A DNA stretch of 64,000 nt from Escherichia coli O127:H6 str. E2348/69 (GTDB lineage Bacteria; Pseudomonadota; Gammaproteobacteria; Enterobacterales; Enterobacteriaceae), in the NCBI RefSeq assembly GCF_000026545.1, contig NC_011601.1; one strand, given 5' to 3'. Each line of letters begins with the position of its first letter. Position 1 is the first letter of the stretch. Below are positions 6,298 through 30,456 of this stretch, piece by piece. A program made the translations under genes and the position numbers. Under the pieces are notes generated by a model. The model was not told where the DNA came from and searched no databases. It saw only the letters and a program-made list of their open reading frames with translations.

Positions 6298-6714
6298 TTA
6301 GCTAAGTGCAGCGGCTTTGGCGCGAATTGCGCGAATCATCGCTTCCAGACCTTGTGAGCGTGATGGGGTGAGATGTTGGGTGAGCGCCATTTTTTCAAAC
6401 CACGGGCGCACATCGAAATTGACAATATCCTGCGGCGTCATTTGATCGTAAAGAATAAAGACGACCGCAATAAGCCCTTTTACAATGGCCGCATCGCTGT
6501 CGCCCTGTAATTCAATAATTCCCTGCGCATTTTGACGCATCACAATCCACACCTGACTCTGGCAGCCCTGGATGCTATTTTGCGGGCTTTTGTCTTCGTC
6601 ACGTAATTCTGGCAGACGCTGACCCAACTCAATAATGTAGAGATATTTCTCTTCCCAGTTGGCGCAGCGTAAAAAATTACGCAGCAATTTTTCTTTATCC
6701 GGCAATAAAGCCAT
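6298..6714 (-). CDS. sufE: Cysteine desulfuration protein SufE
   Basis: 138-aa ORF; position downstream of sufS. Confidence 0.9.
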
Positions 6715-6726
6715 AGTGCCTCCCTG

Positions 6727-7947: not shown

Positions 7948-9215
7948 CTTGCACCTCCTGGCAGTCGTTGACCGATTCGGGCCAGCACCTGCTGTTTAAG
8001 CCCCTCATCACGCAGTGCTTCCGTCAGTTCGGCAGCAAAGGCGTAAATGATCATCTGCTGGGCATCTTGCTGATTGATCCCGCGCGAGCGCAGATAAAAC
8101 ATCTGTTCGTTATCAATACGCCCCACCGTCGCGCCGTGGCTGCATTTCACATCATCTGCATAGATTTCCAGCTGCGGTTTCGTATCCACTTCCGCCAGTT
8201 TGCCCATCAGCAGATTATTGTTGGTCATCTGACCATCCGTTTTGATGGCGTGCTGCGCGACGTTGATCAAACCGTTAAATACCGCGCGGCCTTTGTCGCT
8301 GACGATAGTTTTGTGCAACTGTCGGCTGTTACAAAAACCTTTATTGTGTTCCAACCAGGTACGAGTATCACACACCTCGTTTTTCACCGGCATCGCCAGG
8401 CTATTGATCCGCACCGTGCTGTTTTCGCCATTGAGTTGCGTACTGGTGTTGTGTCGTAACACTGCGCCACCCAGCAGGAAACTGTGGCTAAATGCGGTGG
8501 CATCGTCAGCCAGCAACAAATCGTTATGAGCAAAGTGGTGACTGAGCGGGTTTTCAAACGCCAGCTTGATATGCTGCAAATGGGCGTTCGCTGCGACGTT
8601 GATAGTGAACCGTGCGCCGGTGAAGTGACGAGCATCATTAAGGCTGACAAAATGTTCGATCACCGTTGCTTCGGCACCTTCCGCCAGATCCAGATGATGC
8701 CGGTAATGGGCAGTATTCACCTCTTCACCTGCCACGCCCTGGGTGATATGCATTAACAGCAATGGCTTTGCCGGCCGTTGACCGCGCTTCACGGCGATAT
8801 GCGTCACGCTTTGTGCCAGGCTTTCCGTCAAATGCAGAAACACTTCCGCCTGAATAGCGTCGGGTAACCCCTGACGGTCGTCGTTAATGCTCACTTCATA
8901 TCCGCTGCCTTCAGTTGCATCGCTCAGTGCGGGCACGTAACGTCCATCGACAAACACCAGCCGCACGGCGTCTAATGTTAACGCTAAGGCATCACGCTGC
9001 TGTGGGGATATCTCCCCCGCAATGCTGACAAACTGGCTATTGGTCAGCCCGTCCAGCGGCGTATATTTCCAGTTTTCATGTTTACGTGTCGGCAGTCCGG
9101 TACGCAGCAATTGTTGTAAATGCTGCTGTGCTTGCGGGGAGCGTTTCGCCCCTTCAGCTTCAAACAAATGATTCCACTGTTGCAGTGCGTTACTGCTGTT
9201 CGGTAAGCCAGCCAT
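7944..9215 (-). CDS. sufD: Fe-S cluster assembly protein SufD
   Basis: 423-aa ORF, 4-nt overlap with sufS. Confidence 0.9.
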
Positions 9216-9936
9216 AACCCTGCTCCTCCAGTTGTTTGACCAACGTGAAATCGCTGGATTTCACAATTCGTCCCTGATACAGCACATGGACGTAATCAGG
9301 CTTGATGTAGTCGAGAATGCGTTGGTAGTGCGTAACAATGATGAATGAACGCTTGCCGTCACGCAGCGAGTTCACGCCATCGGCAACCACTTTTAATGCG
9401 TCAATATCCAGCCCGGAGTCTGACTCATCAAGAATGCATAACTCCGGTTCCAGCACCGCCATTTGCAAAATATCGTTGCGCTTTTTCTCGCCGCCGGAAA
9501 AACCAACGTTTACCGAACGGGTTAATAAATCTTCCGGCATCTTCAGGAGAGCGATTTTCTCTTCCATCAAATCCTGAAAATCAAAGCGGTCGAGCGTTTC
9601 CTGGCCGCGATAGCTGCGCACCGCATTAAGTGCCGTTTGCAGGAAAAACTGGTTACTGACGCCGGGAATTTCCACCGGATACTGGAAGGCCATAAAGATG
9701 CCTTCACCTGCACGATCTTCCGGCGACAGCGCAAGCAAATCTTTGCCTTTAAACTCAACCGTGCCGCTCGTCACTTCATAATCTTCTCGCCCGGCAAGCG
9801 TTGCCGATAAGGTACTTTTGCCCGAACCATTGGGCCCCATAATGGCGTGAACTTCGCCGGGACGAACGTCGAGGCTTAATCCACGCAGGATAGCTTTATC
9901 TTCCACGCTGACGTGTAACTCTTTAATACTTAACAT
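9190..9936 (-). CDS. sufC: Fe-S cluster assembly ATPase SufC
   Basis: 248-aa ABC-type ATPase ORF (GPNGSGKST Walker A). Confidence 0.92.
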   Translation of the reverse strand: MLSIKELHVSVEDKAILRGLSLDVRPGEVHAIMGPNGSGKSTLSATLAGREDYEVTSGTVEFKGKDLLALSPEDRAGEGIFMAFQYPVEIPGVSNQFFLQTALNAVRSYRGQETLDRFDFQDLMEEKIALLKMPEDLLTRSVNVGFSGGEKKRNDILQMAVLEPELCILDESDSGLDIDALKVVADGVNSLRDGKRSFIIVTHYQRILDYIKPDYVHVLYQGRIVKSSDFTLVKQLEEQGYGWLTEQQ

Positions 9937-9945
9937 ATTTATTCC

Positions 9946-11433
9946 TTATCCGACGCTGTGTTCAAGACTGATGGCGAGGAGTTTTTGTGCTTCAACGGCA
10001 AATTCCAGCGGCAGTTCCGAGAACACGTCTTTGCAAAAACCGTTAACAATCATCGAGATGGCATCTTCTTCGCTGATCCCGCGTTGCAGGCAGTAAAACA
10101 GTTGATCTTCACCAATACGTGATGTCGTTGCCTCGTGCTCCAGCTGAGCGCTGTTATTGCGACATTCGACATACGGGAAGGTATGCGCCCCACAATTAGC
10201 GCCAATCAGCATTGAGTCGCACTGAGTGAAATTGCGCGCATTGGTTGCCGTCGGCATGATTTTCACTAAGCCGCGATAACTGTTCTGACTATGTCCGGCA
10301 GAGATCCCTTTCGAGATAATGGTCGATTTGGTGTTTTTACCGATGTGGATCATCTTGGTGCCGGTATCCGCTTGCTGATGACCGCTGGTCAGCGCCACTG
10401 AGTAAAACTCACCAATGGAGTTATCGCCGCGCAAAATGCAGCTGGGATATTTCCACGTAATCGCTGAGCCGGTTTCTGATTGCGTCCATGACATTTTGCT
10501 GTTTTCGCCTTCGCACAAAGCACGCTTAGTGACGAAGTTGAGAATACCGCCGGTGTTGTTATCGCCAGGGAACCAGTTTTGTACCGTGGAATATTTCACC
10601 TCGGCGTTTTTATGGATGATGACTTCCACCACCGCCGCGTGTAACTGATAGCTGTCACGCACCGGAGCGGAACAGCCTTCAATGTAGCTAACGTAGCTGT
10701 CTTCGTCGGCCACCAGAATGGTGCGCTCAAACTGCCCGGTTTTTTCCGCGTTAATACGAAAATAGGTGGAAAGTTCCATCGGGCAACGCACGCCTTTAGG
10801 CACATAAATAAACGTACCGTCAGAGGCTACCGCCGCATTAAGTGCGGCAAAGAAGTTGTCATTCCCCGGCACCACGGTGCCGAGATATTTACGCACCAGT
10901 TCCGGGTGATCGTGGATCGCCTCGCCAAAGGAACAAAAAATAATTCCCTGCTCCGCCAGTTTTTCGCGATAAGTAGTGGCAACCGAAACAGAGTCGAAAA
11001 TGGCATCCACTGCCACCTCTTTGCCTTCCCGCACGGGAACGCCCAACTGCTCAAACGCCGCCTCCACCTCTTTACTTAAAAAGGCGTTCGCGCCAGTTTG
11101 CTGCACCGCGCCGGGTTCAGACGCGCAGTTGTCGTCACAATGACCGCACGATGGTGCCGAGTAGTAGCTGTAATCCTGATAATTCAGCTTGTCGTAGTGC
11201 GCTTTCAACCAGTGTGGTTCTTCCATCTCCAGCCATGCGTGATAGGCATTGAGACGAAACTCCAGCATCCACTCCGGCTCATTACGCTTCGCCGAAATTG
11301 CGCGCACCACCTCTTCGTTTATCCCCTTTGCCAGCTCATCGGTGGCTAACTGGGTGAAGAATCCTTCTTTATAATTCAGCGGGCCGCCGGTCCAGGTTTT
11401 GACATCGTCAGTTGCTTCAGTATTACGAGACAT
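9946..11433 (-). CDS. sufB: Fe-S cluster assembly scaffold SufB
   Basis: ORF-track ORF is 508 aa; start set at internal Met ([10 protein letters not shown]...) giving 495 aa. Confidence 0.9.
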
Positions 11434-11441
11434 AGTACCGC

Positions 11442-11810
11442 CTATACCCCAAAGCTTTCGCCACAGCCACATTCATTCTGGGCTTTAGGGTTGTGAAATT
11501 TGAATATCTGATTAAGTCCTTCACGAACGAAATCGACTTCCGTGCCATCAATAAAAGGCATCGCTTGCAGCGGGACAAACAGCTTCGCGCCGTCGTGTTC
11601 AAACAGCAGATCGTCTTTGTCCGGCTCGCTAACACTGTCGAGCACATAGCCAAAGCCCGCGCAGCCCGTTTGCTTCACGCCTAAGCGCACGCCGATCATA
11701 CCAGGCTGCTTTGCCACCAGTTCGCGGATGTGTATCGCCGCTGCGGGTGTCAGCGTTAAGCCTTGCCAGGCGAAATCCTGTGGATTAAAGGTTCCTGAAT
11801 GCATGTCCAT
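11442..11810 (-). CDS. sufA: Fe-S cluster A-type carrier SufA
   Basis: 122-aa ORF ending ...CGCGESFGV. Confidence 0.92.
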
Positions 11811-11854
11811 CGATTTACCTCACTTCATCGCTTTCAGCGTATAACAGCATGTTA

Positions 11855-11871
11855 GTGATAATGATTATCAG
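11855..11871. promoter_or_regulatory. Fur-box-like site in suf promoter (gataatgattatc)
   Basis: Close match to the GATAATGATAATCATTATC Fur consensus ~50 bp upstream of sufA start; a second similar AT palindrome (tagataatgattattatcta) at ~11988-12007. Confidence 0.5.
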
Positions 11872-12089
11872 TTCAACCCAGCAAACGCAGGGGCTTTAGC
11901 GTAAAACATGCTTTTTACCTGCTTTTAATAAGCATAGACCCTGATTTGTGGGTTAACAGGCACGCTAAGAATTAGGTATCTCATTGTTAGATAATGATTA
12001 TTATCTAAGGAGCATTAAGGCTGTGATGAAAAAGAAAAAGTTGTATTGAAAATGACTATTTAAGGGATAGGTAAAAAAGTGCAGCGTTC

Positions 12090-12175
12090 AGAAATAAGAA
12101 AACCCTTAAGTCTGTGCGACACAGGCTTAAGGGTTTCTACCCCATCCGGCGCTTATCTCCGGCACTCACAGTGGC
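12090..12175 (-). ncRNA. Candidate small RNA (position expected for rydB): two stem-loops, the second followed by a U-rich tract on the minus strand
   Basis: Long perfect inverted repeat aacccttaag...cttaagggtt plus a second ccgg hairpin in the sufA–ydiH intergenic region; identity to RydB not confirmed. Confidence 0.35.
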
Positions 12176-12358
12176 TTAGCTCTTGAAGGGGCAATAAGGA
12201 TAATCTCATAAAGCTAACCCACTGTTTTAACACAAACTGCGATTTGTATTATTTTTGAACGTTATCAGTCGGGTAGATAGGCAGTATTAAGAAGGCCCTC
12301 GAACCTGGACGAAGATTAATCCAGGCCGATTTGGCGAACTCGCGACATTAAATCAGGA

Positions 12359-12547
12359 TCAATGCACGCCCAGACGCCAGGCGAAGTAGATTTCTTCTTT
12401 TAATTCAGCAGAAGAGAGAGTAAGCAGGTCAGCAAATTCAAGTTCTAATTGTTTCAGACGCTTGAGATATTGGGCAGGTGAAAGATTGCTTTGGTCACGG
12501 CGTAAAAATTCAATGGCCAGTTGGGTGGGATCAAGTTGAGTAGACAT
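12359..12547 (-). CDS. ydiH: Small protein YdiH
   Basis: 62-aa product from internal Met of the 72-aa ORF; synteny. Confidence 0.6.
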   Translation of the reverse strand: MSTQLDPTQLAIEFLRRDQSNLSPAQYLKRLKQLELEFADLLTLSSAELKEEIYFAWRLGVH

Positions 12548-12646
12548 AGCATCCTCGCTTTTAGACAAGACCTGCACAGTATACCACCGTTTACTGTGCA
12601 GATAACAACCAAAAGCAATATGCGTCTCACTTTTCTGGTTACAACG

Positions 12647-13057
12647 TCACAAAATGGCGGTCGTCAATCGTGAAGAACAGCACAAACGCCCTTTCTCATC
12701 GAAGATTTCAATCTGCCAGACCTGGTGACGCGAACCGAGATGCAACGGTTTGCATACGCCGCGCACCCGCCCTTCTCGTGCCGAGCGGACGTGGTTAGCA
12801 TTGATTTCCAGACCAACCACTTTTTGCTCACCTTCGGTACATAAATAACCGGCAACGGAACCGATACTTTCGGCCAGTACCACGGATGCACCTCCATGCA
12901 GCAACCCGAAAGGCTGCTTTGTCCGCGAGTCTACTGGCATTGTCGCTTCAAGGGTGTCATCACCAATATGTTCAAAGCGAATATCCAGCAACCCCACCAT
13001 GTTTCCTTCACCCATGGCATTCAGTGCTTCCAGGGTGATTTTTCGTTTCCATATCAT
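12647..13057 (-). CDS. menI: Hotdog-fold thioesterase (1,4-dihydroxy-2-naphthoyl-CoA hydrolase type)
   Basis: 136-aa ORF with LHGGAS motif; synteny (ydiI). Confidence 0.85.
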   Translation of the reverse strand: MIWKRKITLEALNAMGEGNMVGLLDIRFEHIGDDTLEATMPVDSRTKQPFGLLHGGASVVLAESIGSVAGYLCTEGEQKVVGLEINANHVRSAREGRVRGVCKPLHLGSRHQVWQIEIFDEKGRLCCSSRLTTAIL

Positions 13058-16000
13058 TTAATAATCTCCAGTAAAGCCTGCACAGGATGGCGTACCCCTG
13101 TGCCTTCAACCCGTTTTACCTGACTACGGCAGGAATATCCGGTCGCCAGACAGCGGTTACGCGGCAGTCGCTGCATAGCCTGATGCCAGGATAATTCATA
13201 GATCCCGAGCGAATTTTTATGGTTTTTCGCTTCATGTCCGTAAGTCCCTGCCATGCCGCAGCACCCCACGCTGACATTTTCCAGTTTCGCGCCAAAACGG
13301 GCAAATATTGCCGCCCATTGTGCTGGCGCGCCTGGCAAGGCGGTAACTTCGGTACAGTGACCAAAGAAATACCATGATTCACCGCTGACTGTAGCCACTG
13401 GCTGTGACTCAAGTGCGCTTGCCAGCCATTCATTTGCCAGTAAGACGTTAAACTCGCCACGCTCCTCGCCCAGAGCCAGTTTATATTCATCGCGATAACA
13501 AAGTACCAGCGCCGGGTCGACGCCTACCATTGGCATACCCAGCTTCGCCATACGGTTGAGGAAATCCGCCGTCTTTTTCGCCGTCTTCGCAAAACGATTA
13601 AGAAAACCTTTGATATGCTGGGCTTTTCCATTTGGCGAAAATGGCAGTAACACGGGCTGGAAACCTAATTTTTCGACCAGACGGACAAAATCCGCCACCA
13701 CTTGAGCATCGTAATAGCTGGTAAAGGGGTCCTGCACCACCAGCACCGTGCGCGCTTTCTGCTCTGCATTGAGAGCTTCAAGCTGTTCCAGCGTCATGTT
13801 TGCCGAGCGATGCCCCACCATTTGTTGTTGTAGCGAGGGGACCGACAGCAGCGGCAAATCAACCATGCCGATATGTTTTTCCGAGAGTTTGCGCACCAGC
13901 GGCTGGTTAATGAAGAAGTTAAAGGTTTTCGGCGCGCGTGCCATCAGCGGTGCGTAACTCTCAACCGTAGCGACGAGGTGGTCGCGCAGCGGGCGTAAAT
14001 AACGGGTGTGATAGAGTTGCAGGAAACGAGAGCGAAACTCCGGCACATCAATTTTGATGGGGCACTGAGTCGAACAAGCTTTACAGGCCAGACAGCCCGA
14101 CATCGCCTCTTTGACTTCGTGTGAGAAGTCATATTCGCCTTTATTCGCATGCCAACTATTGCGCGTGCGGGCAATTAACGTCCGCAAACTGACGCCGGAT
14201 TCAGGCAGTTCTTGTTCCAGTTTGAGTGGGTCAACGCCGCGATCCGCCAACAAACGCAGCCATTCACGTACCAGCGTTGCGCGCCCTTTCGGTGAATGAA
14301 TCCGGTTCTGGGTGATCTTCATCGACGGGCACATCGGACTACGAGCATCAAAGTTGAAGCATAAACCGTTGCCGTTACACTCCATTGCACCACGCCACTG
14401 CTGGCGTACCGCAATGGGGATCTGTCGATCGAATGTACCGCGCTTCACCGCGTCCACTTTCATCATCGGCGCATCGAGACATTCTGGCGGGCAAATCTTC
14501 CCAGGGTTGAGTCGGTTATGCGGGTCAAATACCGCTTTCACTTTACGCAGTTCTGCAAAAAGTTCCTCACCGAAAAACGCCGGGCTGTATTCGGCGCGAA
14601 AACCTTTGCCGTGTTCGCCCCACAACAAACCACCGTATTTCGCGGTAAGCGCCACTACATCATCAGAGATTTGCTTCATCAAAATCTCTTGTTGCGGATC
14701 GCACATATCCAGTGCAGGACGGACGTGCAAGACACCTGCGTCGACGTGACCGAACATACCGTAGCTTAAGCCGTGGCTGTCGAGCAGCGCGCGAAATTCA
14801 GCAATATAATCCGCCAGGTGTTCCGGCGGTACGCAGGTATCCTCAGCAAACGGAATTGGCTTAGCAGCACCTTTGGCATTGCCAAGCAGACCAACGGCTT
14901 TTTTGCGCATCGCATAGATACGTTCAACACCCGCCAGCTCGCGGCACACCTGCCAGCCGATCACTCCTGCCTGTTGGCTGGCAATCAGCTCATCAAGCCG
15001 CACACAGAGTGCATTAACTCGCTCGTCAATCAGTGCCTCATCATCACCAGCAAATTCCACAATGTTCAGCCCGAGCATCTCTTTATCAGGCACATCGGTA
15101 ATCAACTCGCTGACGGAATGCCAGACAATATCTTCCCGCGCCAGATTCAGCACTTTTGAGTCCACCGTCTCTACCGAAAGCGCCCGCGCCTCAACCATAA
15201 ACGGCGCGTTACGCAGCGCGGAGTCAAAAGAGTCATATTTGACGTTCACCAGACGGCGTACTTTAGGCAAGCGCGTAATATCCAGTCGCGCTTCGGTAAT
15301 AAAGGCCAGCGTCCCTTCTGAACCCGTCAGAATGCGCGTCAGATCGAACTCGGTCATCTCATCGTTAAAGACATGACGCAGATCGTAACCGGTAAGAAAG
15401 CGGTTAAGCTTGGGGAAGTTGTCGATGATTAACTGGCGTTGCTGACGGCAACGTTGATAAACCGTGTTATAAATTCGCCCGATTGTGGTATTGGATTTAC
15501 CCAGCGTTTCCGCCAGTTCGACGGGTAAAGGTTGCGTATCGAGAATATCGCCCCCCAACAACACCGCGCGTACGCCAAGTACGTGATCTGACGTTTTGCC
15601 ATAGACCAGCGATCCCTGACCGGATGCATCGGTATTGATCATCCCGCCGAGCGTTGCCCGGTTGCTGGTCGAAAGTTCTGGCGCAAAAAAGTAGCCAAAG
15701 GGTTTCAGGTACTGATTGAGTTGGTCTTTAATCACCCCGGCCTCAACGCGCACCCAGCCCTCTTCAGGGTTAATTTCGATGATGCGGTTCATATGGCGGG
15801 ACATATCAACAATAATCCCCTGGTTGAGCGCCTGACCGTTAGTGCCGGTGCCGCCGCCGCGGGGGGTAAAGATCAACGATGAATAGCGTTCCTGCGCGGC
15901 AAGACGGGCGATCAGCGCCACATCTGCGGTTGAACGCGGAAATACCACCGCATCGGGGAGAAGTTGATAAATACTGTTGTCAGTCGACATTGTCAGACGA

Positions 16001-16110
16001 TCGGCATAACTTGTCGCCGTATCGCCGGTAAAACCCTGTTGCTCCAGCTCTTGCAAAAAATTAAGCACCAGTTGAACGACGCCGGGTGCCTGGGAAATCT
16101 GTGGAATCAT
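13054..16110 (-). CDS. ydiJ: FAD-linked oxidoreductase with C-terminal Fe-S domain, YdiJ
   Basis: ORF-track ORF is 1042 aa; start at internal Met (MIPQISQAPG...) gives ~1018 aa. Confidence 0.85.
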   Translation of the reverse strand: MIPQISQAPGVVQLVLNFLQELEQQGFTGDTATSYADRLTMSTDNSIYQLLPDAVVFPRSTADVALIARLAAQERYSSLIFTPRGGGTGTNGQALNQGIIVDMSRHMNRIIEINPEEGWVRVEAGVIKDQLNQYLKPFGYFFAPELSTSNRATLGGMINTDASGQGSLVYGKTSDHVLGVRAVLLGGDILDTQPLPVELAETLGKSNTTIGRIYNTVYQRCRQQRQLIIDNFPKLNRFLTGYDLRHVFNDEMTEFDLTRILTGSEGTLAFITEARLDITRLPKVRRLVNVKYDSFDSALRNAPFMVEARALSVETVDSKVLNLAREDIVWHSVSELITDVPDKEMLGLNIVEFAGDDEALIDERVNALCVRLDELIASQQAGVIGWQVCRELAGVERIYAMRKKAVGLLGNAKGAAKPIPFAEDTCVPPEHLADYIAEFRALLDSHGLSYGMFGHVDAGVLHVRPALDMCDPQQEILMKQISDDVVALTAKYGGLLWGEHGKGFRAEYSPAFFGEELFAELRKVKAVFDPHNRLNPGKICPPECLDAPMMKVDAVKRGTFDRQIPIAVRQQWRGAMECNGNGLCFNFDARSPMCPSMKITQNRIHSPKGRATLVREWLRLLADRGVDPLKLEQELPESGVSLRTLIARTRNSWHANKGEYDFSHEVKEAMSGCLACKACSTQCPIKIDVPEFRSRFLQLYHTRYLRPLRDHLVATVESYAPLMARAPKTFNFFINQPLVRKLSEKHIGMVDLPLLSVPSLQQQMVGHRSANMTLEQLEALNAEQKARTVLVVQDPFTSYYDAQVVADFVRLVEKLGFQPVLLPFSPNGKAQHIKGFLNRFAKTAKKTADFLNRMAKLGMPMVGVDPALVLCYRDEYKLALGEERGEFNVLLANEWLASALESQPVATVSGESWYFFGHCTEVTALPGAPAQWAAIFARFGAKLENVSVGCCGMAGTYGHEAKNHKNSLGIYELSWHQAMQRLPRNRCLATGYSCRSQVKRVEGTGVRHPVQALLEIIK

Positions 16111-16194
16111 TATATTGACCCTTTCCTGCGGTCTGTGATGTAGGTCGATACATTGTTCTTTCAGGCTGCTGCAATAGCGCACTGAAAGGTGATG

Positions 16195-16330
16195 TTTGTT
16201 TACTCTATGGATTTCGAGTTGCAGGAAGGCGGCAAGCGAGTGAACTCCAGGAGCTTACAAAAGTAAGTGACTGGGGTGAGCGAACGTAGCCGCAGCATAT
16301 GCAACTTGAAATACAACGAGTAAATCGTTT
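16195..16330. repeat. ERIC / intergenic repeat unit element
   Basis: Contains aagtaagtgactggggtgagcg (ERIC2 primer sequence) and the partner arm gtgaactccaggagcttaca in imperfect-palindrome arrangement, between ydiJ and ydiK. Confidence 0.8.
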
Positions 16331-16498
16331 GCGTGTTGCCTGAGTTGTTGTACCACATTTTTTTCTTACACGCCCATCAGAATTAAGGGCAGAATCGACC
16401 TGTTAAAAACCGCTGAAATTGCTCATCATTATGCAGGTGAGTTTCGCGTGTTCACGTCGCGTCGACGATTTGACGCACAAAAAAGGTGAAAAGTAGTT

Positions 16499-17611
16499 AT
16501 GGTAAATGTTCGTCAGCCCAAGGATGTCGCACAAATTCTGCTTTCGGTGCTGTTTTTAGCCATCATGATTGTGGCATGTCTGTGGATTGTACAACCCTTT
16601 ATTCTCGGCTTTGCATGGGCCGGTACAGTGGTTATCGCCACCTGGCCGGTATTGTTACGTTTGCAAAAGATCATGTTTGGTCGCCGCTCTCTCGCCGTTC
16701 TGGTGATGACGCTGTTATTAGTGATGGTGTTTATCATCCCTATTGCTTTGCTGGTTAACAGTATCGTCGACGGCAGCGGCCCGCTAATTAAAGCCATTTC
16801 CAGTGGTGACATGACATTACCCGATCTGGCGTGGCTTAAAACCATTCCGGTGATTGGCACGAAGCTATATGCAGGCTGGCACAATTTGCTGGATATGGGG
16901 GGGACGGCGATCATGGCGAAAGTCCGTCCTTATATTGGCACCACCACCACCTGGTTCGTTGGGCAGGCGGCGCATATCGGGCGCTTTATGGTGCATTGTG
17001 CGCTGATGCTTCTCTTCAGCGCCCTGCTGTACTGGCGCGGTGAACAGGTGGCACAAGGCATTCGCCATTTTGCAACCCGTCTGGCAGGCGTTCGCGGAGA
17101 TGCCGCCGTGCTGCTGGCGGCACAGGCTATCCGCGCGGTGGCGCTGGGTGTGGTGGTGACGGCGTTAGTACAGGCAGTGCTTGGCGGTATCGGCCTCGCC
17201 GTATCCGGCGTACCTTATGCAACTTTGCTAACGGTGTTAATGATCCTCTCCTGCCTTGTCCAGCTTGGACCGTTGCCGGTACTGATTCCGGCGATTATCT
17301 GGCTCTACTGGACTGGCGATACCACCTGGGGAACGGTATTGTTAGTTTGGAGCGGTGTGGTTGGCACGCTCGATAACGTCATCCGCCCAATGTTAATTCG
17401 CATGGGTGCCGATTTACCGCTGATCCTGATCCTCTCTGGCGTTATTGGTGGTTTGATTGCTTTCGGGATGATCGGTCTGTTTATTGGTCCGGTTCTGTTA
17501 GCCGTTTCCTGGCGTCTGTTTGCCGCGTGGGTGGAAGAAGTCCCACCACCGACGGACCAACCGGAAGAAATTCTCGAAGAACTTGGCGAAATCGAGAAAC
17601 CGAATAAGTAA
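16499..17611 (+). CDS. ydiK: AI-2E family transporter YdiK
   Basis: 370-aa polytopic membrane ORF. Confidence 0.85.
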   Translation: MVNVRQPKDVAQILLSVLFLAIMIVACLWIVQPFILGFAWAGTVVIATWPVLLRLQKIMFGRRSLAVLVMTLLLVMVFIIPIALLVNSIVDGSGPLIKAISSGDMTLPDLAWLKTIPVIGTKLYAGWHNLLDMGGTAIMAKVRPYIGTTTTWFVGQAAHIGRFMVHCALMLLFSALLYWRGEQVAQGIRHFATRLAGVRGDAAVLLAAQAIRAVALGVVVTALVQAVLGGIGLAVSGVPYATLLTVLMILSCLVQLGPLPVLIPAIIWLYWTGDTTWGTVLLVWSGVVGTLDNVIRPMLIRMGADLPLILILSGVIGGLIAFGMIGLFIGPVLLAVSWRLFAAWVEEVPPPTDQPEEILEELGEIEKPNK

Positions 17612-17796
17612 TTTCTCATCAGGCGGCTCTGCCGCCTGATTGTTAACCCTGGCTAATTGATATTTGCTTGCTCTTCCCCATATTTTCCTGCTTACCGCTA
17701 TTCAGCTGGTAGTACCTGTCGCAAATTCTTTACAGTTTTTAAACTAATGAGACGAATCTGATCGACGCAAAAAGTCCGTATGCCTACTATTAGCTC

Positions 17797-17901
17797 ACGG
17801 TTATAAATCAACATATTGATTTATAAGCATGGAAATCCCCTGAGTGAAACAACGAATTGCTGTGTGTAGTCTTTGCCCATCTCCCACGATGGGCTTTTTT
17901 T
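17797..17901 (+). ncRNA. rprA: RprA small regulatory RNA
   Basis: Sequence acggttataaatcaacatattgatttataagcatggaaatcccctgagtgaaacaacgaattgctgtgtgtagtctttgcccatctcccacgatgggcttttttt matches remembered RprA, ending in hairpin + T-run. Confidence 0.85.
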
Positions 17902-18039
17902 TAACATTTTTCCGCTTCGCTACCTCGCCCCTCACTCTTTCCAATAATGTTGCACAAGATACTGTGACTCTCTTCAAGCCGTCAGCAGGCTGATAATGTT
18001 ATTTATATTTTATTGTTTATTTCATGCAGCCATTACACG

Positions 18040-18396
18040 ATGAACGCTTATGAACTCCAGGCACTTCGCCATATTTTTGCCATGACTATTGATGAATGCG
18101 CGACCTGGATTGCCCAGACCGGTGACAGTGAAAGCTGGCGTCAGTGGGAAAATGGCAAATGCGCCATTCCTGATTGTGTAGTAGAGCAACTGTTGGCTAT
18201 GCGTCAGCAACGAAAAAAACATCTTCATGCCATCATAGAGAAAATAAATAACCGCATCGGCAACAACACCATGCGTTTTTTCCCCGACTTAACCGCGTTT
18301 CAACAAGTCTACCCTGATGGCAATTTTATTGACTGGAAGATCTATCAATCGGTAGCCGCTGAATTATATGCACACGATCTGGAGCGGCTTTGTTAA
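18040..18396 (+). CDS. ydiL: Uncharacterized protein YdiL
   Basis: 118-aa product from internal Met (MNAYELQALRH...). Confidence 0.7.
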   Translation: MNAYELQALRHIFAMTIDECATWIAQTGDSESWRQWENGKCAIPDCVVEQLLAMRQQRKKHLHAIIEKINNRIGNNTMRFFPDLTAFQQVYPDGNFIDWKIYQSVAAELYAHDLERLC

Positions 18397-18495
18397 TTTC
18401 TCCACAGAAAGGAATTGTCGTTGTTACAACAATAATGAACGGATACTGACACAACATCGCTACACTTTTTAAAGCACCTTTGCTAAGTAGAACCT

Positions 18496-19710
18496 ATGAA
18501 AAATCCCTATTACCCTACCGCACTTGGGTTGTATTTTAATTACCTGGTGCATGGTATGGGCGTCATTTTGATGAGCCTGAATATGGCCTCGCTGGAGACG
18601 CTTTGGCAGACTAATGCCGCGGGCGTCTCGATAGTTATCTCATCACTGGGCATTGGTCGATTAAGTGTCTTGCTTTTTGCAGGATTATTATCCGATCGCT
18701 TTGGTCGCCGCCCTTTTATCATGCTCGGGATGTGCTGCTATATGGCCTTCTTTTTTGGCATCCTGCACACCAATAACATCATTATCGCTTATGTTTTTGG
18801 CTTTCTGGCGGGAATGGCAAACAGTTTTCTCGATGCAGGCACCTATCCCAGTTTGATGGAAGCTTTTCCACGCTCACCGGGTACAGCCAATATTTTAATT
18901 AAAGCATTTGTTTCCAGTGGACAATTTTTATTACCGCTAATCATCAGCCTGCTAGTGTGGGCTGAACTGTGGTTCGGTTGGTCCTTTATGATTGCCGCAG
19001 GCATTATGTTTATTAACGCTCTGTTTTTATACCGTTGTACGTTCCCACCCCATCCGGGTCGTCGCTTACCTGTCATAAAGAAAACCACCAGCTCTACGGA
19101 ACATCGCTGTTCAATTATCGATTTAGCCAGTTATACCTTATATGGCTATATCTCAATGGCAACGTTTTATCTGGTTAGCCAGTGGCTGGCACAGTACGGA
19201 CAATTTGTTGCAGGCATGTCATACACTATGTCGATCAAACTACTTAGTATCTACACCGTGGGTTCGCTGCTTTGTGTATTTATTACCGCTCCACTCATTC
19301 GTAATACCGTTCGCCCAACAACATTACTGATGCTGTACACCTTTATCTCATTTACTGCTCTGTTTACCGTCTGTCTGCATCCCACATTTTATGTGGTGAT
19401 AATATTTGCTTTCGTCATCGGTTTTACCTCCGCAGGCGGTGTTGTACAAATTGGCCTGACGTTAATGGCGGAACGTTTTCCCTACGCTAAAGGAAAAGCA
19501 ACGGGGATCTATTACAGTGCGGGCAGCATTGCAACATTTACCATTCCGTTGATTACGGCTCATCTTTCGCAAAGAAGTATTGCCGATATTATGTGGTTCG
19601 ATACCGCCATCGCTGCTATCGGCTTTATACTGGCACTGTTTATTGGCTTACGCAGTCGCAAAGAAACGCGGCATCACACGCTAAAGGAAAATATCGCTCC
19701 GGGTGGGTAA
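18496..19710 (+). CDS. ydiM: MFS transporter YdiM
   Basis: 404-aa 12-TM-like ORF. Confidence 0.8.
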   Translation: MKNPYYPTALGLYFNYLVHGMGVILMSLNMASLETLWQTNAAGVSIVISSLGIGRLSVLLFAGLLSDRFGRRPFIMLGMCCYMAFFFGILHTNNIIIAYVFGFLAGMANSFLDAGTYPSLMEAFPRSPGTANILIKAFVSSGQFLLPLIISLLVWAELWFGWSFMIAAGIMFINALFLYRCTFPPHPGRRLPVIKKTTSSTEHRCSIIDLASYTLYGYISMATFYLVSQWLAQYGQFVAGMSYTMSIKLLSIYTVGSLLCVFITAPLIRNTVRPTTLLMLYTFISFTALFTVCLHPTFYVVIIFAFVIGFTSAGGVVQIGLTLMAERFPYAKGKATGIYYSAGSIATFTIPLITAHLSQRSIADIMWFDTAIAAIGFILALFIGLRSRKETRHHTLKENIAPGG

Positions 19711-19936
19711 TGCAATATTCTTTTCAGGTTATGCAAGATCTTACGGATAAATAACTCTTTCTGCGCTAACTAAGGAAAATCGCGATCAAAAACAAACTAT
19801 GACATGCAATATTCCTGGAAACATAAACTTTATGCCATGTACCCAGGGAAAATCATCTTCAGTATAGTAATTATGTAAACCGTCGGAGAACAATACGTAC
19901 GGTAACGAAATTATCTTTCAGCAAGGAGCTGTGAAA

Positions 19937-21202
19937 ATGTCTCAAAATAAGGCTTTCAGCACGCCATTTATCCTGGCTGTTCTTTGTATTTACTTCAGCT
20001 ATTTCCTGCACGGCATTAGTGTTATTACGCTTGCCCAAAACATGACATCTTTGGCAGAAAAGTTTTCCACTGACAACGCGGGCATTGCCTATTTAATTTC
20101 CGGTATCGGATTGGGGCGATTGATCAGTATTTTATTCTTCGGAGTGATCTCCGATAAGTTTGGTCGTCGGGCGGTGATATTAATGGCAGTAATAATGTAT
20201 CTGCTATTCTTCTTTGGTATTCCTGCTTGCCCGAATTTAACTCTCGCCTACTGTCTGGCAGTGTGCGTAGGTATCGCTAACTCAGCGCTGGATACGGGTG
20301 GCTACCCCGCGCTCATGGAATGCTTTCCGAAAGCCTCTGGTTCGGCGGTCATACTGGTTAAAGCGATGGTGTCATTTGGGCAAATGTTCTACCCAATGCT
20401 GGTGAGCTATATGTTGCTCAATAACATCTGGTACGGCTATGGGCTGATTATTCCGGGTATTCTGTTTGTACTGATCACGCTGATGCTGTTGAAAAGCAAA
20501 TTCCCCAGCCAGTTGGTGGACGCCAGCGTAGCTAATGAATTACCGCAAATGAACAGCAAACCGTTAGTCTGGCTGGAAGGTGTTTCATCAGTACTGTTCG
20601 GTGTAGCCGCATTCTCGACCTTTTATGTGATTGTGGTGTGGATGCCCAAATATGCGATGGCTTTTGCTGGTATGTCAGAAGCTGAGGCATTAAAAACCAT
20701 CTCTTATTACAGTATGGGTTCGCTGGTCTGTGTCTTTATTTTTGCCGCACTGCTGAAAAAAATGGTCCGGCCCATCTGGGCTAATGTATTTAACTCTGCA
20801 CTGGCAACAATAACAGCTGCCATTATCTACCTGTACCCTTCTCCATTGGTGTGTAATGCCGGAGCCTTTGTTATCGGTTTCTCAGCAGCTGGCGGCATTT
20901 TACAGCTCGGCGTTTCGGTCATGTCAGAGTTTTTCCCAAAAAGCAAAGCCAAAGTCACCAGTATATATATGATGATGGGTGGACTGGCTAACTTTATTAT
21001 TCCGCTGATTACCGGTTATCTGTCGAACATCGGCCTGCAATATATCATTGTTCTCGATTTTACTTTCGCGCTGCTGGCCCTGATTACCGCAATTATTGTT
21101 TTTATCCGCTATTACCGCGTTTTCATTATTCCTGAAAATGATGTGCGGTTTGGCGAGCATAAATTTAGCACCCAGTTAAACACAATTAAGCATAGAGGTT
21201 AA
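19937..21202 (+). CDS. ydiN: MFS transporter YdiN
   Basis: ~421-aa membrane ORF, paralogous in sequence to ydiM. Confidence 0.8.
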
Positions 21203-21213
21203 AGGAGTTAATT

Positions 21214-22080
21214 ATGGATGTTACCGCAAAATACGAATTGATTGGGTTGATGGCCTATCCCATCCGCCACAGTTTATCGCCCGAAATGCAGAATAAAGCC
21301 TTAGAAAAAGCGGGATTGCCATTTACCTATATGGCCTTTGAAGTGGATAACGATAGTTTTCCCGCAGCAATTGAAGGATTAAAAGCCCTCAAAATGCGCG
21401 GAACTGGTGTATCAATGCCGAACAAACAACTGGCGTGTGAATATGTTGATGAATTAACGCCAGCAGCCAAACTGGTGGGTGCCATCAACACCATCGTAAA
21501 TGATGATGGCTATCTGCGTGGCTATAACACCGACGGCACGGGCCATATTCGCGCCATTAAAGAGAGCGGTTTTGATATCAAAGGCAAAACGATGGTGCTG
21601 TTAGGGGCCGGAGGTGCCTCAACGGCAATTGGCGCGCAGGGGGCAATTGAAGGTTTAAAAGAAATTAAACTCTTTAACCGTCGGGATGAGTTCTTCGATA
21701 AAGCCCTCGCCTTCGCGCAGCGGGTTAACGAAAACACCGATTGCGTCGTGACAGTCACCGATCTCGCCGATCAGCAAGCCTTTGCTGAAGCCCTGGCTTC
21801 CGCCGACATTTTAACCAATGGCACCAAAGTGGGTATGAAACCCCTTGAGAATGAATCATTGGTTAATGATATCAGTCTGTTACATCCGGGACTTCTGGTC
21901 ACTGAATGCGTGTATAACCCGCATATGACGAAGTTATTGCAGCAGGCGCAACAAGCGGGTTGCAAAACGATTGATGGATACGGCATGTTGTTGTGGCAAG
22001 GGGCTGAACAGTTCACGTTATGGACTGGCAAAGATTTCCCTCTGGAATATGTTAAACAGGTCATGGGGTTCGGTGCCTGA
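21214..22080 (+). CDS. ydiB: Quinate/shikimate dehydrogenase
   Basis: 288-aa ORF with GAGGAS NAD(P)-binding motif. Confidence 0.9.
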
Positions 22081-22110
22081 CAGGCTGACCGCGTGCAGAA
22101 AGGGTAAAAA

Positions 22111-22869
22111 ATGAAAACCGTAACTGTAAAAGATCTCGTCATTGGTACGGGCGCACCTAAAATCATCGTCTCGCTGATGGCGAAAGATATCGCCAGCGTG
22201 AAATCCGAAGCTCTCGCCTATCGTGAAGCGGACTTTGATATTCTGGAATGGCGTGTGGACCACTATGCCGATCTCTCCAATGTGGAGTCTGTCATAGCGG
22301 CAGCAAAAATTCTCCGTGAAACCATGCCAGAAAAACCGCTGCTGTTTACCTTCCGCAGTGCCAAAGAAGGCGGCGAGCAGGCGATTTCCACCGAGGCTTA
22401 TATTGCACTCAATCGTGCAGCCATCGACAGTGGCCTGGTTGATATGATCGATCTGGAGTTATTTACCGGCGATGATCAGGTTAAAGAAACCGTCGCCTAC
22501 GCCCACGCGCATGATGTGAAAGTTGTCATGTCCAACCATGACTTCCATAAAACGCCGGAAGCCGAAGAAATCATTGCCCGTCTGCGCAAAATGCAGTCCT
22601 TCGACGCCGATATTCCTAAGATTGCGCTGATGCCGCAAAGTACCAGCGATGTGCTGACGTTGCTTGCCGCGACCCTGGAGATGCAGGAGCAGTATGCCGA
22701 TCGTCCAATCATCACGATGTCGATGGCAAAAACTGGCGTAATTTCTCGTCTGGCTGGTGAAGTATTTGGGTCGGCGGCAACTTTTGGTGCGGTAAAAAAA
22801 GCCTCTGCGCCAGGGCAAATCTCGGTAAATGATTTGCGTACGGTATTAACTATTTTACATCAGGCATAA
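22111..22869 (+). CDS. aroD: 3-dehydroquinate dehydratase, type I
   Basis: 252-aa [29 protein letters not shown]... Confidence 0.95.
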
Positions 22870-23013
22870 GCAATAATATTTCGGCGGGAATACCCTCCCC
22901 CGCCGAACTAAAAAAGTATTTTTAACCGTATTTAATAAAAATATTTCGTGAGTCTCTGTGCGCTAATTCTCCATCTGGCGTAGGGAAAATCACACCTGAA
23001 TCAGGAATTAACA

Positions 23014-24609
23014 ATGAAACCTGTAAAACCACCTCGTATTAATGGACGAGTGCCGGTCCTGTCGGCACAGGAAGCGGTGAATTATATTCCCGACGAAGCA
23101 ACACTTTGTGTGTTAGGCGCTGGCGGCGGTATTCTGGAAGCCACCACGTTAATTACTGCTCTTGCTGATAAATATAAACAGACTCAAACGCCACGTAATT
23201 TATCGATTATAAGTCCAACAGGGCTTGGCGATCGCGCCGACCGTGGTATTAGTCCGCTGGCGCAAGAAGGTCTGGTGAAATGGGCATTATGCGGTCACTG
23301 GGGACAATCGCCGCGTATTTCTGATCTCGCAGAACAAAATAAAATTATTGCTTATAACTATCCACAAGGTGTACTTACACAAACCTTACGCGCCGCCGCA
23401 GCCCACCAGCCTGGTATTATTAGTGATATTGGCATCGGAACATTTGTCGATCCACGCCAGCAAGGCGGCAAACTGAATGAAGTCACTAAAGAAGACCTGA
23501 TTAAACTGGTCGAGTTTGATAACAAAGAATATCTCTATTACAAAGCGATTGCGCCAGATATCGCCTTCATTCGCGCTACCACCTGCGACAGCGAAGGCTA
23601 CGCCACTTTTGAAGATGAGGTGATGTATCTCGACGCATTGGTTATTGCCCAGGCGGTGCACAATAACGGCGGTATTGTGATGATGCAGGTGCAGAAAATG
23701 GTTAAGAAAGCCACGCTGCATCCTAAATCTGTCCGTATTCCGGGTTATCTGGTGGATATTGTGGTGGTCGATCCGGATCAAACCCAACTGTATGGCGGTG
23801 CGCCGGTTAACCGCTTTATTTCTGGTGACTTCACTCTTGATGACAGCACCAAACTTAGCCTGCCCCTAAACCAACGTAAATTAGTTGCACGGCGTGCATT
23901 ATTCGAAATGCGCAAAGGCGCAGTGGGGAATGTCGGCGTCGGTATTGCTGACGGCATTGGCCTGGTCGCCCGGGAAGAAGGTTGTGATGATGACTTTATT
24001 CTGACGGTAGAAACAGGTCCGATTGGCGGTATTACTTCACAGGGGATCGCCTTTGGCGCGAACGTGAATACCCGCGCCATTCTGGATATGACGTCCCAGT
24101 TTGATTTTTATCACGGCGGTGGTCTGGATGTTTGTTATTTGAGTTTTGCTGAAGTCGACCAGCACGGTAACGTCGGCGTGCATAAATTCAATGGTAAAAT
24201 CATGGGCACCGGTGGATTTATTGATATCAGTGCCACTTCGAAGAAAATCGTGTTCTGCGGCACATTAACTGCGGGCAGTTTAAAAACAGAAATTACCGAC
24301 GGCAAATTAAATATCGTCCAGGAAGGACGGGTGAAGAAATTTATTCGGGAACTACCGGAAATAACTTTCAGCGGAAAAATCGCTCTCGAGCGAGGGCTGG
24401 ATGTTCGTTATATCACTGAGCGCGCCGTATTCACGTTAAAAGAAGACGGCCTGCATTTAATCGAAATCGCTCCTGGCGTCGATTTACAAAAAGATATTCT
24501 CGACAAAATGGATTTCACCCCAGTGATTTCGCCAGAACTCAAACTGATGGACGAAAGATTATTTATCGATGCGGCGATGGGTTTTGTCCTGCCTGAAGCG
24601 GCTCATTAA
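23014..24609 (+). CDS. ydiF: Acyl-CoA:acetate CoA-transferase family protein YdiF
   Basis: 531-aa ORF; synteny. Confidence 0.85.
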   Translation: MKPVKPPRINGRVPVLSAQEAVNYIPDEATLCVLGAGGGILEATTLITALADKYKQTQTPRNLSIISPTGLGDRADRGISPLAQEGLVKWALCGHWGQSPRISDLAEQNKIIAYNYPQGVLTQTLRAAAAHQPGIISDIGIGTFVDPRQQGGKLNEVTKEDLIKLVEFDNKEYLYYKAIAPDIAFIRATTCDSEGYATFEDEVMYLDALVIAQAVHNNGGIVMMQVQKMVKKATLHPKSVRIPGYLVDIVVVDPDQTQLYGGAPVNRFISGDFTLDDSTKLSLPLNQRKLVARRALFEMRKGAVGNVGVGIADGIGLVAREEGCDDDFILTVETGPIGGITSQGIAFGANVNTRAILDMTSQFDFYHGGGLDVCYLSFAEVDQHGNVGVHKFNGKIMGTGGFIDISATSKKIVFCGTLTAGSLKTEITDGKLNIVQEGRVKKFIRELPEITFSGKIALERGLDVRYITERAVFTLKEDGLHLIEIAPGVDLQKDILDKMDFTPVISPELKLMDERLFIDAAMGFVLPEAAH

Positions 24610-24622
24610 CAGGAGTATAATG

Positions 24623-25774
24623 ATGGATTTTTCTTTAACTGAAGAACAAGAACTGCTGCTGGCCAGTATTCGCGAACTGATTACGACTAACTTTCCGGAA
24701 GAGTATTTCCGCACCTGCGATCAAAACGGGACATACCCGCGTGAGTTTATGCGGGCACTGGCGGATAACGGTATTTCCATGCTTGGCGTGCCGGAAGAAT
24801 TTGGTGGTATCCCTGCGGATTACGTCACCCAAATGCTGGCGCTGATGGAAGTGTCAAAATGCGGTGCTCCGGCATTTTTGATTACCAACGGTCAATGTAT
24901 TCACAGTATGCGCCGTTTCGGTTCTGCAGAGCAGCTACGTAAAACGGCAGAGAGCACCCTAGAAACGGGTGATCCCGCCTATGCCCTGGCATTGACGGAG
25001 CCAGGCGCAGGCTCAGACAACAACAGTGCCACTACCACTTACACGCGTAAAAACGGCAAGGTTTACATCAACGGACAGAAAACCTTTATTACCGGTGCGA
25101 AAGAGTATCCATATATGCTGGTGTTGGCGCGCGATCCGCAACCGAAAGATCCGAAAAAGGCCTTTACTCTGTGGTGGGTCGACTCCAGTAAGCCCGGCAT
25201 TAAAATCAATCCACTGCATAAAATCGGCTGGCATATGCTCAGCACCTGCGAAGTCTATCTCGACAACGTGGAAGTTGAAGAGAGCGACATGGTGGGCGAA
25301 GAAGGAATGGGTTTCCTCAATGTGATGTACAACTTTGAGATGGAGCGCCTGATCAACGCCGCGCGCAGCACCGGCTTTGCCGAATGCGCATTCGAAGATG
25401 CCGCCCGCTATGCCAACCAGCGTATCGCTTTTGGTAAGCCCATTGGTCATAACCAGATGATACAGGAAAAACTTGCGCTGATGGCGATTAAGATCGACAA
25501 CATGCGCAACATGGTGTTGAAAGTGGCATGGCAAGCCGATCAGCATCAGTCACTGCGCACCAGCGCGGCGCTGGCAAAACTGTACTGCGCACGTACCGCA
25601 ATGGAAGTCATTGATGATGCGATTCAAATCATGGGCGGTCTGGGCTATACCGATGAGGCGCGCGTCTCCCGCTTCTGGCGTGATGTCCGTTGTGAACGTA
25701 TCGGCGGCGGTACAGACGAAATTATGATTTACGTAGCAGGTCGGCAGATCCTGAAAGATTATCAGAACAAATAA
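24623..25774 (+). CDS. ydiO: Acyl-CoA dehydrogenase family protein YdiO
   Basis: 383-aa product from MDFSLTEEQELL; ORF-track ORF starts 18 codons earlier. Confidence 0.85.
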   Translation: MDFSLTEEQELLLASIRELITTNFPEEYFRTCDQNGTYPREFMRALADNGISMLGVPEEFGGIPADYVTQMLALMEVSKCGAPAFLITNGQCIHSMRRFGSAEQLRKTAESTLETGDPAYALALTEPGAGSDNNSATTTYTRKNGKVYINGQKTFITGAKEYPYMLVLARDPQPKDPKKAFTLWWVDSSKPGIKINPLHKIGWHMLSTCEVYLDNVEVEESDMVGEEGMGFLNVMYNFEMERLINAARSTGFAECAFEDAARYANQRIAFGKPIGHNQMIQEKLALMAIKIDNMRNMVLKVAWQADQHQSLRTSAALAKLYCARTAMEVIDDAIQIMGGLGYTDEARVSRFWRDVRCERIGGGTDEIMIYVAGRQILKDYQNK

Positions 25775-25816
25775 TCTGCAGGCGGCGCAGCTTCTTAACA
25801 AACTGCGCCGCCAGAT

Positions 25817-26728
25817 TTATCCGGCAAGACTTACCGGTTGAGGAAATTCAGATAGGATTTCTTGTTCCGCAAAACAGTTTTTAAATTGCCTGCGGTAATC
25901 GCTGGGCGAACAGCCGACATGGCGCAAAAACAGTTTGGCAAAGTGATCGACATTTTCATAACCCACACGCCAGGAGATCTCTGCCTGTGATAATTCAGTA
26001 TTAGTGAGTGACCATTTCGCTTCCGTCATACGCCGTTGAATAACATAGTTAATAGGGGAAATACGATACTCTTTGGTAAATTCATGGCAGATATAACTGA
26101 CGCTGGCACGAAATTTTTTCGATAACTGCTCTAAAGTGATTTTTTCGCGATAGTTATTATTCAGATAGAAAAGAATATCTTTTATCAGAACATCTTTTTT
26201 AATATACCCCTGCTCCGAACGATAAGCATTTTTAAAGTTTTCGTAGTAAAGAATTGCTAACGTATAGGCAAATGCGTCCCATAACGAAGATGTTTGGCTA
26301 TTTTTACTTTGCGGCAAAATCACACTTAGCTCATTAAATAAGGTTTTAATGACTTCTTTTCCCTGCCCTGCGGCAATTACCGGGCAAGAATGCGGTTGCA
26401 GTAGCTGATTTTCCTCAGCCCCCTGAAACTGAAAGCCGTACAGCGCACAGGTACACGTCGTTGCCGGATCGTTAACGTCAGAGGCCACCGCATGCAGCCT
26501 GCCACGTTCTATCACCACAATGTCATCGGCATGCGCGACATATAACGAAGAATCGATGGTAAACCTTGCTACCCCTTTCTTGACGTAAATCAGCTCGGTT
26601 TCATTGTCATGAACGTGATGTCCAGACTCCCATTTTGGATCATCGCTAAATGCGAAACGTGAAAGCCGTGGCGTTTTACCGGCGACAAACAGCGTTTCAC
26701 TGGCATTATCAAAACAGCGTTGATACAT
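25817..26728 (-). CDS. ydiP: AraC-family transcriptional regulator YdiP
   Basis: 303-aa ORF with cupin-like N-terminus and C-terminal AraC HTH. Confidence 0.8.
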   Translation of the reverse strand: MYQRCFDNASETLFVAGKTPRLSRFAFSDDPKWESGHHVHDNETELIYVKKGVARFTIDSSLYVAHADDIVVIERGRLHAVASDVNDPATTCTCALYGFQFQGAEENQLLQPHSCPVIAAGQGKEVIKTLFNELSVILPQSKNSQTSSLWDAFAYTLAILYYENFKNAYRSEQGYIKKDVLIKDILFYLNNNYREKITLEQLSKKFRASVSYICHEFTKEYRISPINYVIQRRMTEAKWSLTNTELSQAEISWRVGYENVDHFAKLFLRHVGCSPSDYRRQFKNCFAEQEILSEFPQPVSLAG

Positions 26729-27043
26729 GACAACCTCCCTATTCCATGAGCAAACAAAAACAATATATGCCGGATAAAATACGGCGTGTATTGCGGTTAT
26801 ACAACCGCGTTTAGCGAGAGCTAAACAAGATTATTTACACTGAATGCAAGATTGCACGGTCATGGAATAACTATATTGCCGCAAATTGCACTTTTGTTTT
26901 AGCGATCGCATTTTTTTTGCAAGATTGTTGGCAAGGAAAACAGCTTGCTCCGTCGAAAACCCCGCACCGCTATCGCACACTATTTTCAGGCCATTTTTAC
27001 CTTCCATCGGAGATGGTTCCGTATGCGACTCACAGGAGAAATC

Positions 27044-27808: not shown

Positions 27809-27827
27809 AGCCTACGGAGAAGAAACG

Positions 27828-28766: not shown

Positions 28767-28820
28767 TTCCCTTTCAACCACATCTCCCGCTGTAAACGCA
28801 GCGGGAAGGGAGCATAACGC

Positions 28821-30400: not shown

Positions 30401-30456
30401 TCATGCATCCCACAGGCCCGCATCTCGGGCCTGATGTTCTGTTTCGAGAGTCCAAA

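Follow-up and report, generated by a model that had tools for sequence, protein, structure and literature searches.

The 428-nt spacer between ydiK and ydiL in the enteropathogenic Escherichia coli (EPEC) O127:H6 strain E2348/69 raises two related questions: what occupies so long a non-coding gap and, if the occupant is the small RNA gene rprA, what such a gene would be able to do in this strain. A first-pass annotation had named the element as RprA, complete over its length and including its terminator, and had offered it as the explanation of the gap. The answer reached here is that the locus is the chromosomal rprA gene, encoding a 105-nt, Hfq-dependent, trans-acting small RNA (probability about 0.97). 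All coordinates refer to the window, which is the whole 64,000-nt stretch of DNA that was analysed, unless another sequence is named.

The locus and its genomic setting

The gene lies among the following features.

16499..17611, + strand: ydiK (AI-2E family transporter), the upstream neighbour; RefSeq, and Pfam PF01594 (AI-2E_transport) at 8.8e-64
17618..17640, + strand: hairpin ATCAGGCGGC-TCT-GCCGCCTGAT, read from the sequence just 3′ of the ydiK stop codon; identical in K-12
17797..17901, + strand: rprA, the 105-nt primary transcript; Rfam RF00034 and identity to K-12 b4431
18040..18396, + strand: ydiL (Aca2/YdiL family), the downstream neighbour; RefSeq, and Pfam PF08965 (Aca2_YdiL) at 7.1e-62 over its full length

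Rfam 15, applied to the entire window at gathering thresholds, gave two matches, RprA (RF00034) and rydB (RF00118). The RprA match extends from 17797 to 17904 on the + strand and covers model positions 1-108 of 108, with a score of 118.5 bits against a gathering score of 70, an E-value of 1.6e-16 and a posterior probability of 1.00 at every position. Scoring above the gathering score of this covariance model, the element is a full-length member of the RprA family in both sequence and structure. Other Rfam matches that overlap rprA, to Ysr49 and anti-hemB, fall far below their own gathering scores and are treated as chance. The rydB match is likewise full length (12132..12192, - strand, between sufA and ydiH; 83 bits against a gathering score of 50, E-value 3.5e-18), and the features that RefSeq lists for the identical E2348/69 sequence do not include this sRNA.

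Comparison with K-12 MG1655 leads to the same identification. The K-12 gene b4431 (1770372..1770477, 106 nt) maps to 17797..17902, and alignment of the spacers shows rprA and the 97 nt upstream of it to be base-for-base identical, with zero mismatches within the gene. Four positions differ across the 428-nt spacer, all of them upstream of the promoter (17649-17651, CTG against ACC in K-12; 17699, T against C in K-12), while the stretch from the promoter through the sRNA down to ydiL is the same in both. The Rfam scan and the K-12 alignment were the two checks that the first-pass annotation had suggested, and both came out in its favour; the covariance model, the terminator scan and the alignment agree on an RNA that is present over its whole length with its terminator. 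The 3′ end is placed at 17901 in the first-pass annotation, at 17902 in the K-12 annotation and at 17904 by Rfam and RefSeq, differences that arise because residues of the T8 run and the AA that follows it are counted differently; the RprA length used in the literature, 105 nt (PMC3465796), matches an end at 17901.

Nor is the gene new: RefSeq names rprA at 17797..17904 (+) in the EPEC O127:H6 E2348/69 sequence that is identical to the window, and the element, which is also annotated in K-12 (b4431), had rightly been called a known feature. Among 5426 complete E. coli genomes, 5421 have its 108-nt sequence at an identity of 99% or more. Over the segment 17400-18400, the window matches three EPEC O127:H6 E2348/69 assemblies at 100%, and one of them, NZ_LT827011.1, reproduces window 1..50000 base for base at 1783214-1833213. 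The gene is thus an ordinary, textbook, previously annotated sRNA gene whose own sequence shows nothing unusual, and its value for the window is that of a correct annotation which accounts for part of the ydiK-ydiL spacer.

The placement between ydiK and ydiL is upheld by the RefSeq tables and by Pfam. The three genes are co-oriented on the + strand, and the synteny is the same in the RefSeq tables of E2348/69 and K-12. The Pfam family to which ydiL belongs, PF08965 (‘Aca2/YdiL-like’), also includes the anti-CRISPR-associated Aca2 regulators. As an explanation of the gap, RprA holds in part: the RNA with its promoter and RcsB box spans 17748..17902, about 155 nt, or roughly a third of the 428-nt spacer. 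The remainder is made up of the terminator-like hairpin of ydiK and of two stretches, one of about 105 nt upstream and one of about 135 nt before ydiL. Judged from its sequence and position, the hairpin at 17618..17640 is a probable ydiK terminator that would separate ydiK transcription from rprA; it was not reported by the terminator scan, which missed it because its T-run is weak.

Two further features of the window can be described in passing. The spacer between ydiJ and ydiK contains an imperfect palindrome of about 127 nt (~16198..16325, + strand) that folds at -65.3 kcal/mol (z = -5.15, with 0 of 200 shuffles as good) and gives weak, sub-threshold Rfam matches to V_AS5 and Ysr49. Within it lies AAGTAAGTGACTGGGGTGAGCG, which we take to be the ERIC2 primer sequence, so that the palindrome is probably an ERIC/IRU repeat. 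Farther downstream, a P2-family prophage is inserted next to btuC (~42767..64000). Its P2-family capsid and terminase genes lie downstream of the two genes given below, and an S8 peptidase and an AAA ATPase are also encoded in it. Only 88 of the 5426 genomes contain 80% or more of window 40000-64000.

43173..44147, - strand: prophage integrase
46941..49763, + strand: prophage replication endonuclease

Target pairing and the rpoS status of E2348/69 stocks

The founding function of RprA is the activation of rpoS translation in anti-antisense fashion (PMC3465796), and two portions of the RNA are of importance for its action on targets.

17829..17858, + strand: linker, RprA nt 33-62, complementary to the rpoS leader at -118..-93; the best duplex site within the linker
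17855..17901, + strand: last 47 nt, the processed species RprAproc (PMC9262595), which holds anti-csgD site I and the invariant core

The published pairing regions crowd into the same part of the molecule. Pairing with csgD involves a site II at nt 28-45 and a site I at nt 60-97, and pairing with ydaM/dgcM involves nt 45-75 (PMC3465796), so that linker nt 33-62 overlaps anti-csgD site II and the ydaM/dgcM region. The processed form has been defined as the last 47 nt (PMC9262595), and a degradation product, RprA60-105, has also been noted (PMC3465796).

Two broad searches for the rpoS pairing site were set aside. An unrestricted RNAduplex calculation of RprA against the K-12 rpoS leader gave -55.9 kcal/mol by zipping the whole RNAs together through large loops, a value equalled by 84 of 1000 shuffles and hence uninformative, and an all-against-all scan of 32-nt windows, in which accessibility is ignored, placed the GC-rich arm of the terminator on top (21 of 54 shuffles equal). 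With RprA limited to linker nt 31-77, the top-ranked duplex joined nt 33-62 to leader -118..-93 and so fell on the published site. The duplex has a core of -23.1 kcal/mol and reaches -27.9 kcal/mol when extended, with 41 of 500 shuffles as good. Because these energies are unexceptional, the case for pairing between RprA and rpoS rests on the coincidence of the sites and on published genetics rather than on duplex energy. Of 5426 E. coli genomes, 5411 share without change the 56-nt segment of the rpoS leader that holds the pairing site; in E2348/69 the site is intact at -118, and both partners are identical to the K-12 pair.

By this complementarity, and by identity to K-12, linker nt 33-62 would pair, at -118..-93, with the arm on the upstream side of the inhibitory stem in the 5′ leader of rpoS, the activation of rpoS itself being known from the literature. 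The linker and the 3′ half would also repress csgD, ydaM/dgcM, hdeD, narP and lrhA at or near their translation start regions, and the processed 47-nt 3′ species would keep part of this repressive activity, both as described in the literature.

Whether the activating arm leads anywhere appears to depend on the stock. The rpoS gene lies outside the window and is annotated as frameshifted in NZ_LT827011.1 (3060687..3061680, corresponding to 15688..16681 on the - strand of the extracted locus L128), where one additional G after nt 389 (GCGC-GG to GCGCGGG, the altered allele being at rpoS nt 386-392) brings the frame to a stop at codon 135. This exact allele is confined to NZ_LT827011.1 and NZ_LT903847.1; in NZ_CP059840.2, the third E2348/69 assembly, rpoS is intact at 993 nt. 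Wherever the three assemblies were compared with the window, they are identical to it. No mention of an rpoS frameshift in E2348/69 was found in a literature search.

These observations give rise to the most serious alternative account of the locus, in which rprA is intact but its sigma-S arm is non-productive owing to the frameshift, and only the sigma-S-independent repression of csgD, dgcM, hdeD, narP and lrhA is left. The annotated lesion and its presence in two assemblies that match the window at 100% speak for this account; the intact gene in NZ_CP059840.2, which matches equally at 100%, speaks against it, and its probability is put at somewhat below even. It also concerns downstream output only and leaves unchanged the identification of the locus as chromosomal rprA. 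In frameshift stocks, RprA could still open the rpoS leader, but this would yield no functional sigma-S, and the repressive targets would be unaffected; for functional sigma-S to result from the rpoS arm of the mechanism, the stock would thus need to have its rpoS intact. If the account is true, Rcs- and RprA-dependent phenotypes of E2348/69 could differ by stock. That rpoS status varies among the sequenced stocks bears in any case on how RprA and sigma-S phenotypes of this strain are read.

Promoter, transcript and RNA structure

The remaining alternatives question whether the locus is a separate RNA gene at all, and the evidence that bears on them comes from the promoter, the terminator and the fold of the RNA.

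17748..17761, + strand: RcsB box TGAGACGAATCTGA, at -49..-36 from the transcription start; fits TN(G/A)GAN4TC(T/C)NA
17762..17767, + strand: weak -35-like element TCGACG, directly after the RcsB box
17785..17790, + strand: putative -10 hexamer TACTAT, placed with reference to the annotated 5′ end and by conservation
17801..17826, + strand: 5′ stem-loop, RprA nt 5-15 paired with nt 20-30, in the minimum-energy and centroid folds
17875..17902, + strand: rho-independent terminator, from the terminator scan and the fold; 7-bp stem (17875..17894, 5 GC pairs), 6-nt loop and T8

The consensus TN(G/A)GAN4TC(T/C)NA is the structurally defined box of the RcsB homodimer, and a 23-mer from the Salmonella rprA promoter, spanning -53..-33, has been co-crystallised with RcsB (PMC7913699). 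The candidate box upstream of rprA matches this motif and is identical to its K-12 counterpart; its core is that of the Salmonella 23-mer, from which one flanking base differs. The pattern occurs three times in the window against an expectation of 2.2, that is, at chance frequency, and the motif by itself is therefore no evidence; its conservation among orthologs carries the assignment, the strict box being kept in 114 of 116 Enterobacterales loci among the matches listed, most often at -49/-50. The two other occurrences, TAAGATGAATCCGA about 180 nt upstream of lpp (4656..4669, +) and TAAGACTGATCCCA about 200 nt upstream of ppsR (34661..34674, +), are probably not meaningful, given that count.

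Farther downstream in the promoter, the string ‘cctactatt’, in which the -10 hexamer is embedded, is conserved among Enterobacteriaceae rprA orthologs. A generic sigma-70 scan scored the rprA promoter below its threshold (8 of 12 matches), which fits the expectation for an activator-dependent promoter. According to the literature, rprA is activated by RcsB and CpxR and repressed by LrhA (PMC5861431), and transcriptional control by the Rcs phosphorelay, CpxR and LrhA is also stated elsewhere (PMC9262595). Envelope stress would thus act through the Rcs phosphorelay so that a phospho-RcsB dimer binds the box at -49..-36 and the weak promoter is activated, a step for which the box and its conservation come from the present analysis and the regulation from the literature. 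Transcription would begin at 17797 and proceed to the intrinsic terminator, releasing an RNA in which an unstructured linker joins a 5′ hairpin to a terminator hairpin. The EPEC strain would in this respect carry the standard regulatory link from Rcs to RprA.

The predicted fold of the whole RNA has this same layout: a 5′ hairpin, a largely unstructured linker and a terminator hairpin in which nt 79-85 pair with nt 92-98, followed by a U-run. The whole-RNA z-score is only -2.26. The terminator and its oligo-U tail form a 3′ module of the Hfq type, and the U-tail of such terminators is the Hfq-binding module. For the identical K-12 RprA, Hfq binding and dependence are known from the literature (PMC3708529); elsewhere, the role of Hfq in RprA action is described as auxiliary (PMC3465796).

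Comparison across species provides a more searching view of this structure. The 25-nt core GAATTGCTGTGTGTAGTCTTTGCCC was used as an exact query against a collection holding one genome per species, which yielded at least 120 loci; among the matches listed, the genera that bear the core are Escherichia, Salmonella, Citrobacter, Enterobacter, Kluyvera, Pantoea, Erwinia, Serratia, Pectobacterium, Dickeya, Brenneria and Hafnia. In an alignment of 104 distinct Enterobacterales rprA sequences drawn from the matches listed, the two-hairpin structure has standard pairs in 91.1% of its cells and shows both-side, compensatory changes in 12 of 18 pairs; 0 of 500 column shuffles reached any of the observed measures, and sliding the 3′ partners by 1-3 columns reduced the pairing to 25-48%. 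Most of the covariation lies in the 5′ stem-loop (both-side changes in 10 of 11 pairs, with about 85% of cells paired). The terminator stem is 99.9% paired across the 104 orthologs, with compensatory changes in two pairs, the retrieval 25-mer spanning the first 4 nt of its 5′ arm (nt 79-82, GCCC). The invariance of nt 58-82 in the alignment is partly by construction, since retrieval by an exact 25-mer fixes those positions. The 5′ and terminator hairpins are both maintained by compensatory substitutions.

Seen against this evidence, it is extremely improbable that the locus is conserved sequence without a gene of its own, such as the 3′-UTR or terminator of ydiK or a leader element of ydiL. 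The shared orientation with both neighbours and the silence of the generic sigma-70 scan at the expected promoter would suit such an element. The position of a separate hairpin right after the ydiK stop codon is at odds with it, as are the RcsB box and -10 that are identical to K-12 and conserved in 114 of 116 of the loci among the matches listed, the RNA's own strong terminator 135 nt before ydiL, and the annotation of a separate ncRNA gene in K-12. Scarcely credible is the idea that the region codes for a small protein instead of, or besides, an RNA regulator: the two open reading frames in the program-made list that would serve it (17801..17977, - strand, 58 aa; 17844..17993, + strand, 49 aa) start with TTG and GTG, have no Pfam match and are annotated in neither K-12 nor E2348/69, and the conservation takes the form of RNA helices with compensatory changes and of linker indels, and is not codon-like. 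The reading of the locus as rprA, an sRNA gene with its own promoter and terminator, is thus retained.

RprA look-alikes and comparison with known systems

Sequences that resemble RprA in part occur on mobile elements. Partial matches are carried by P1-like phage-plasmids of 44-99 kb from Enterobacter, Citrobacter, Klebsiella quasipneumoniae and E. coli, represented by PLSDB hits H51-H55 and placed in two of the extracted loci as follows.

L125, 3955..4057: RprA look-alike of a phage-plasmid
L126, 3947..4049: RprA look-alike of a phage-plasmid

Only RprA nt ~62-105 are conserved in these elements, almost exactly, which corresponds roughly to the processed form with the terminator. With 63.4 bits for RprA in Rfam, they fall short of the gathering score of 70. 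The look-alikes reside in a non-coding stretch near pacA, lpa, the terminase and phage tRNAs. A search of the INPHARED phage collection gave no match to RprA-like sequence, and a literature search found no description of an ‘RprA-like’ phage-plasmid module. This small set of phage-plasmids with a look-alike of the processed RprA 3′ half may be of modest practical interest.

A proposal with two separate parts could be built on these look-alikes and on the frameshift stocks, although we consider it unlikely. In its first part, which starts from the fact that rprA, its RcsB-dependent promoter and the rpoS pairing site are all intact in the frameshift stocks, RprA would be a purely sigma-S-independent repressor in a widely used EPEC reference strain; in its second, P1-like phage-plasmids would have captured the processed 3′ module, conceivably as a mobile mimic or competitor of RprAproc.

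Other rprA loci also show some variety. Phytobacter massiliensis (NZ_HE578945.1) has a canonical rprA (L052) and a second copy (L053, 1165..1284, + strand, 77.8 bits). Some 500 nt separate this additional copy from a match to C4 antisense RNA (RF01695, 65.8 bits), and it adjoins a phage repressor-like open reading frame (phrog_769, 6.7e-30), so that its context looks like a prophage. Among loci of the Pectobacteriaceae type (L098, L104, L110 and L123), some are much longer on the 5′ side, where their RcsB box precedes the core by about 135 nt. Three of these, L098, L104 and L110, were at one point taken for extra rprA copies that lack an RcsB box; they are in fact ordinary orthologs in which the 5′ region is longer and the box lies further upstream. 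In L123, a short internal tandem duplication places GAGTTAGTAACGAA twice just before the conserved core.

Set beside the known RprA (RF00034; K-12 b4431), the E2348/69 locus has the same sequence, promoter, terminator and genomic position. Within the gene there is no difference, and the four substitutions in the spacer lie outside the known promoter elements; the K-12 system differs from that of two E2348/69 stocks in that the target gene rpoS is frameshifted in the latter. The P1-like modules, for example those of p60214CZ_1 of Enterobacter hormaechei and of plasmid unnamed5 of E. coli CH468, share nt ~62-105 with RprA but have another 5′ part and a mobile-element context, and they lack both the RcsB box and the rpoS-pairing segment. 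The second Phytobacter copy shares nt ~37-105 with RprA and likewise lacks the RcsB box. DsrA and ArcZ are other Hfq-dependent sRNAs that activate rpoS translation, neither of which was detected in the window by the Rfam scan. They act as anti-antisense RNAs on the upstream arm of the rpoS leader that RprA also targets, whereas their sequences are unrelated, their loci are distinct and the signals that induce them are different. For RprA, the mechanism is summarised in PMC3465796.
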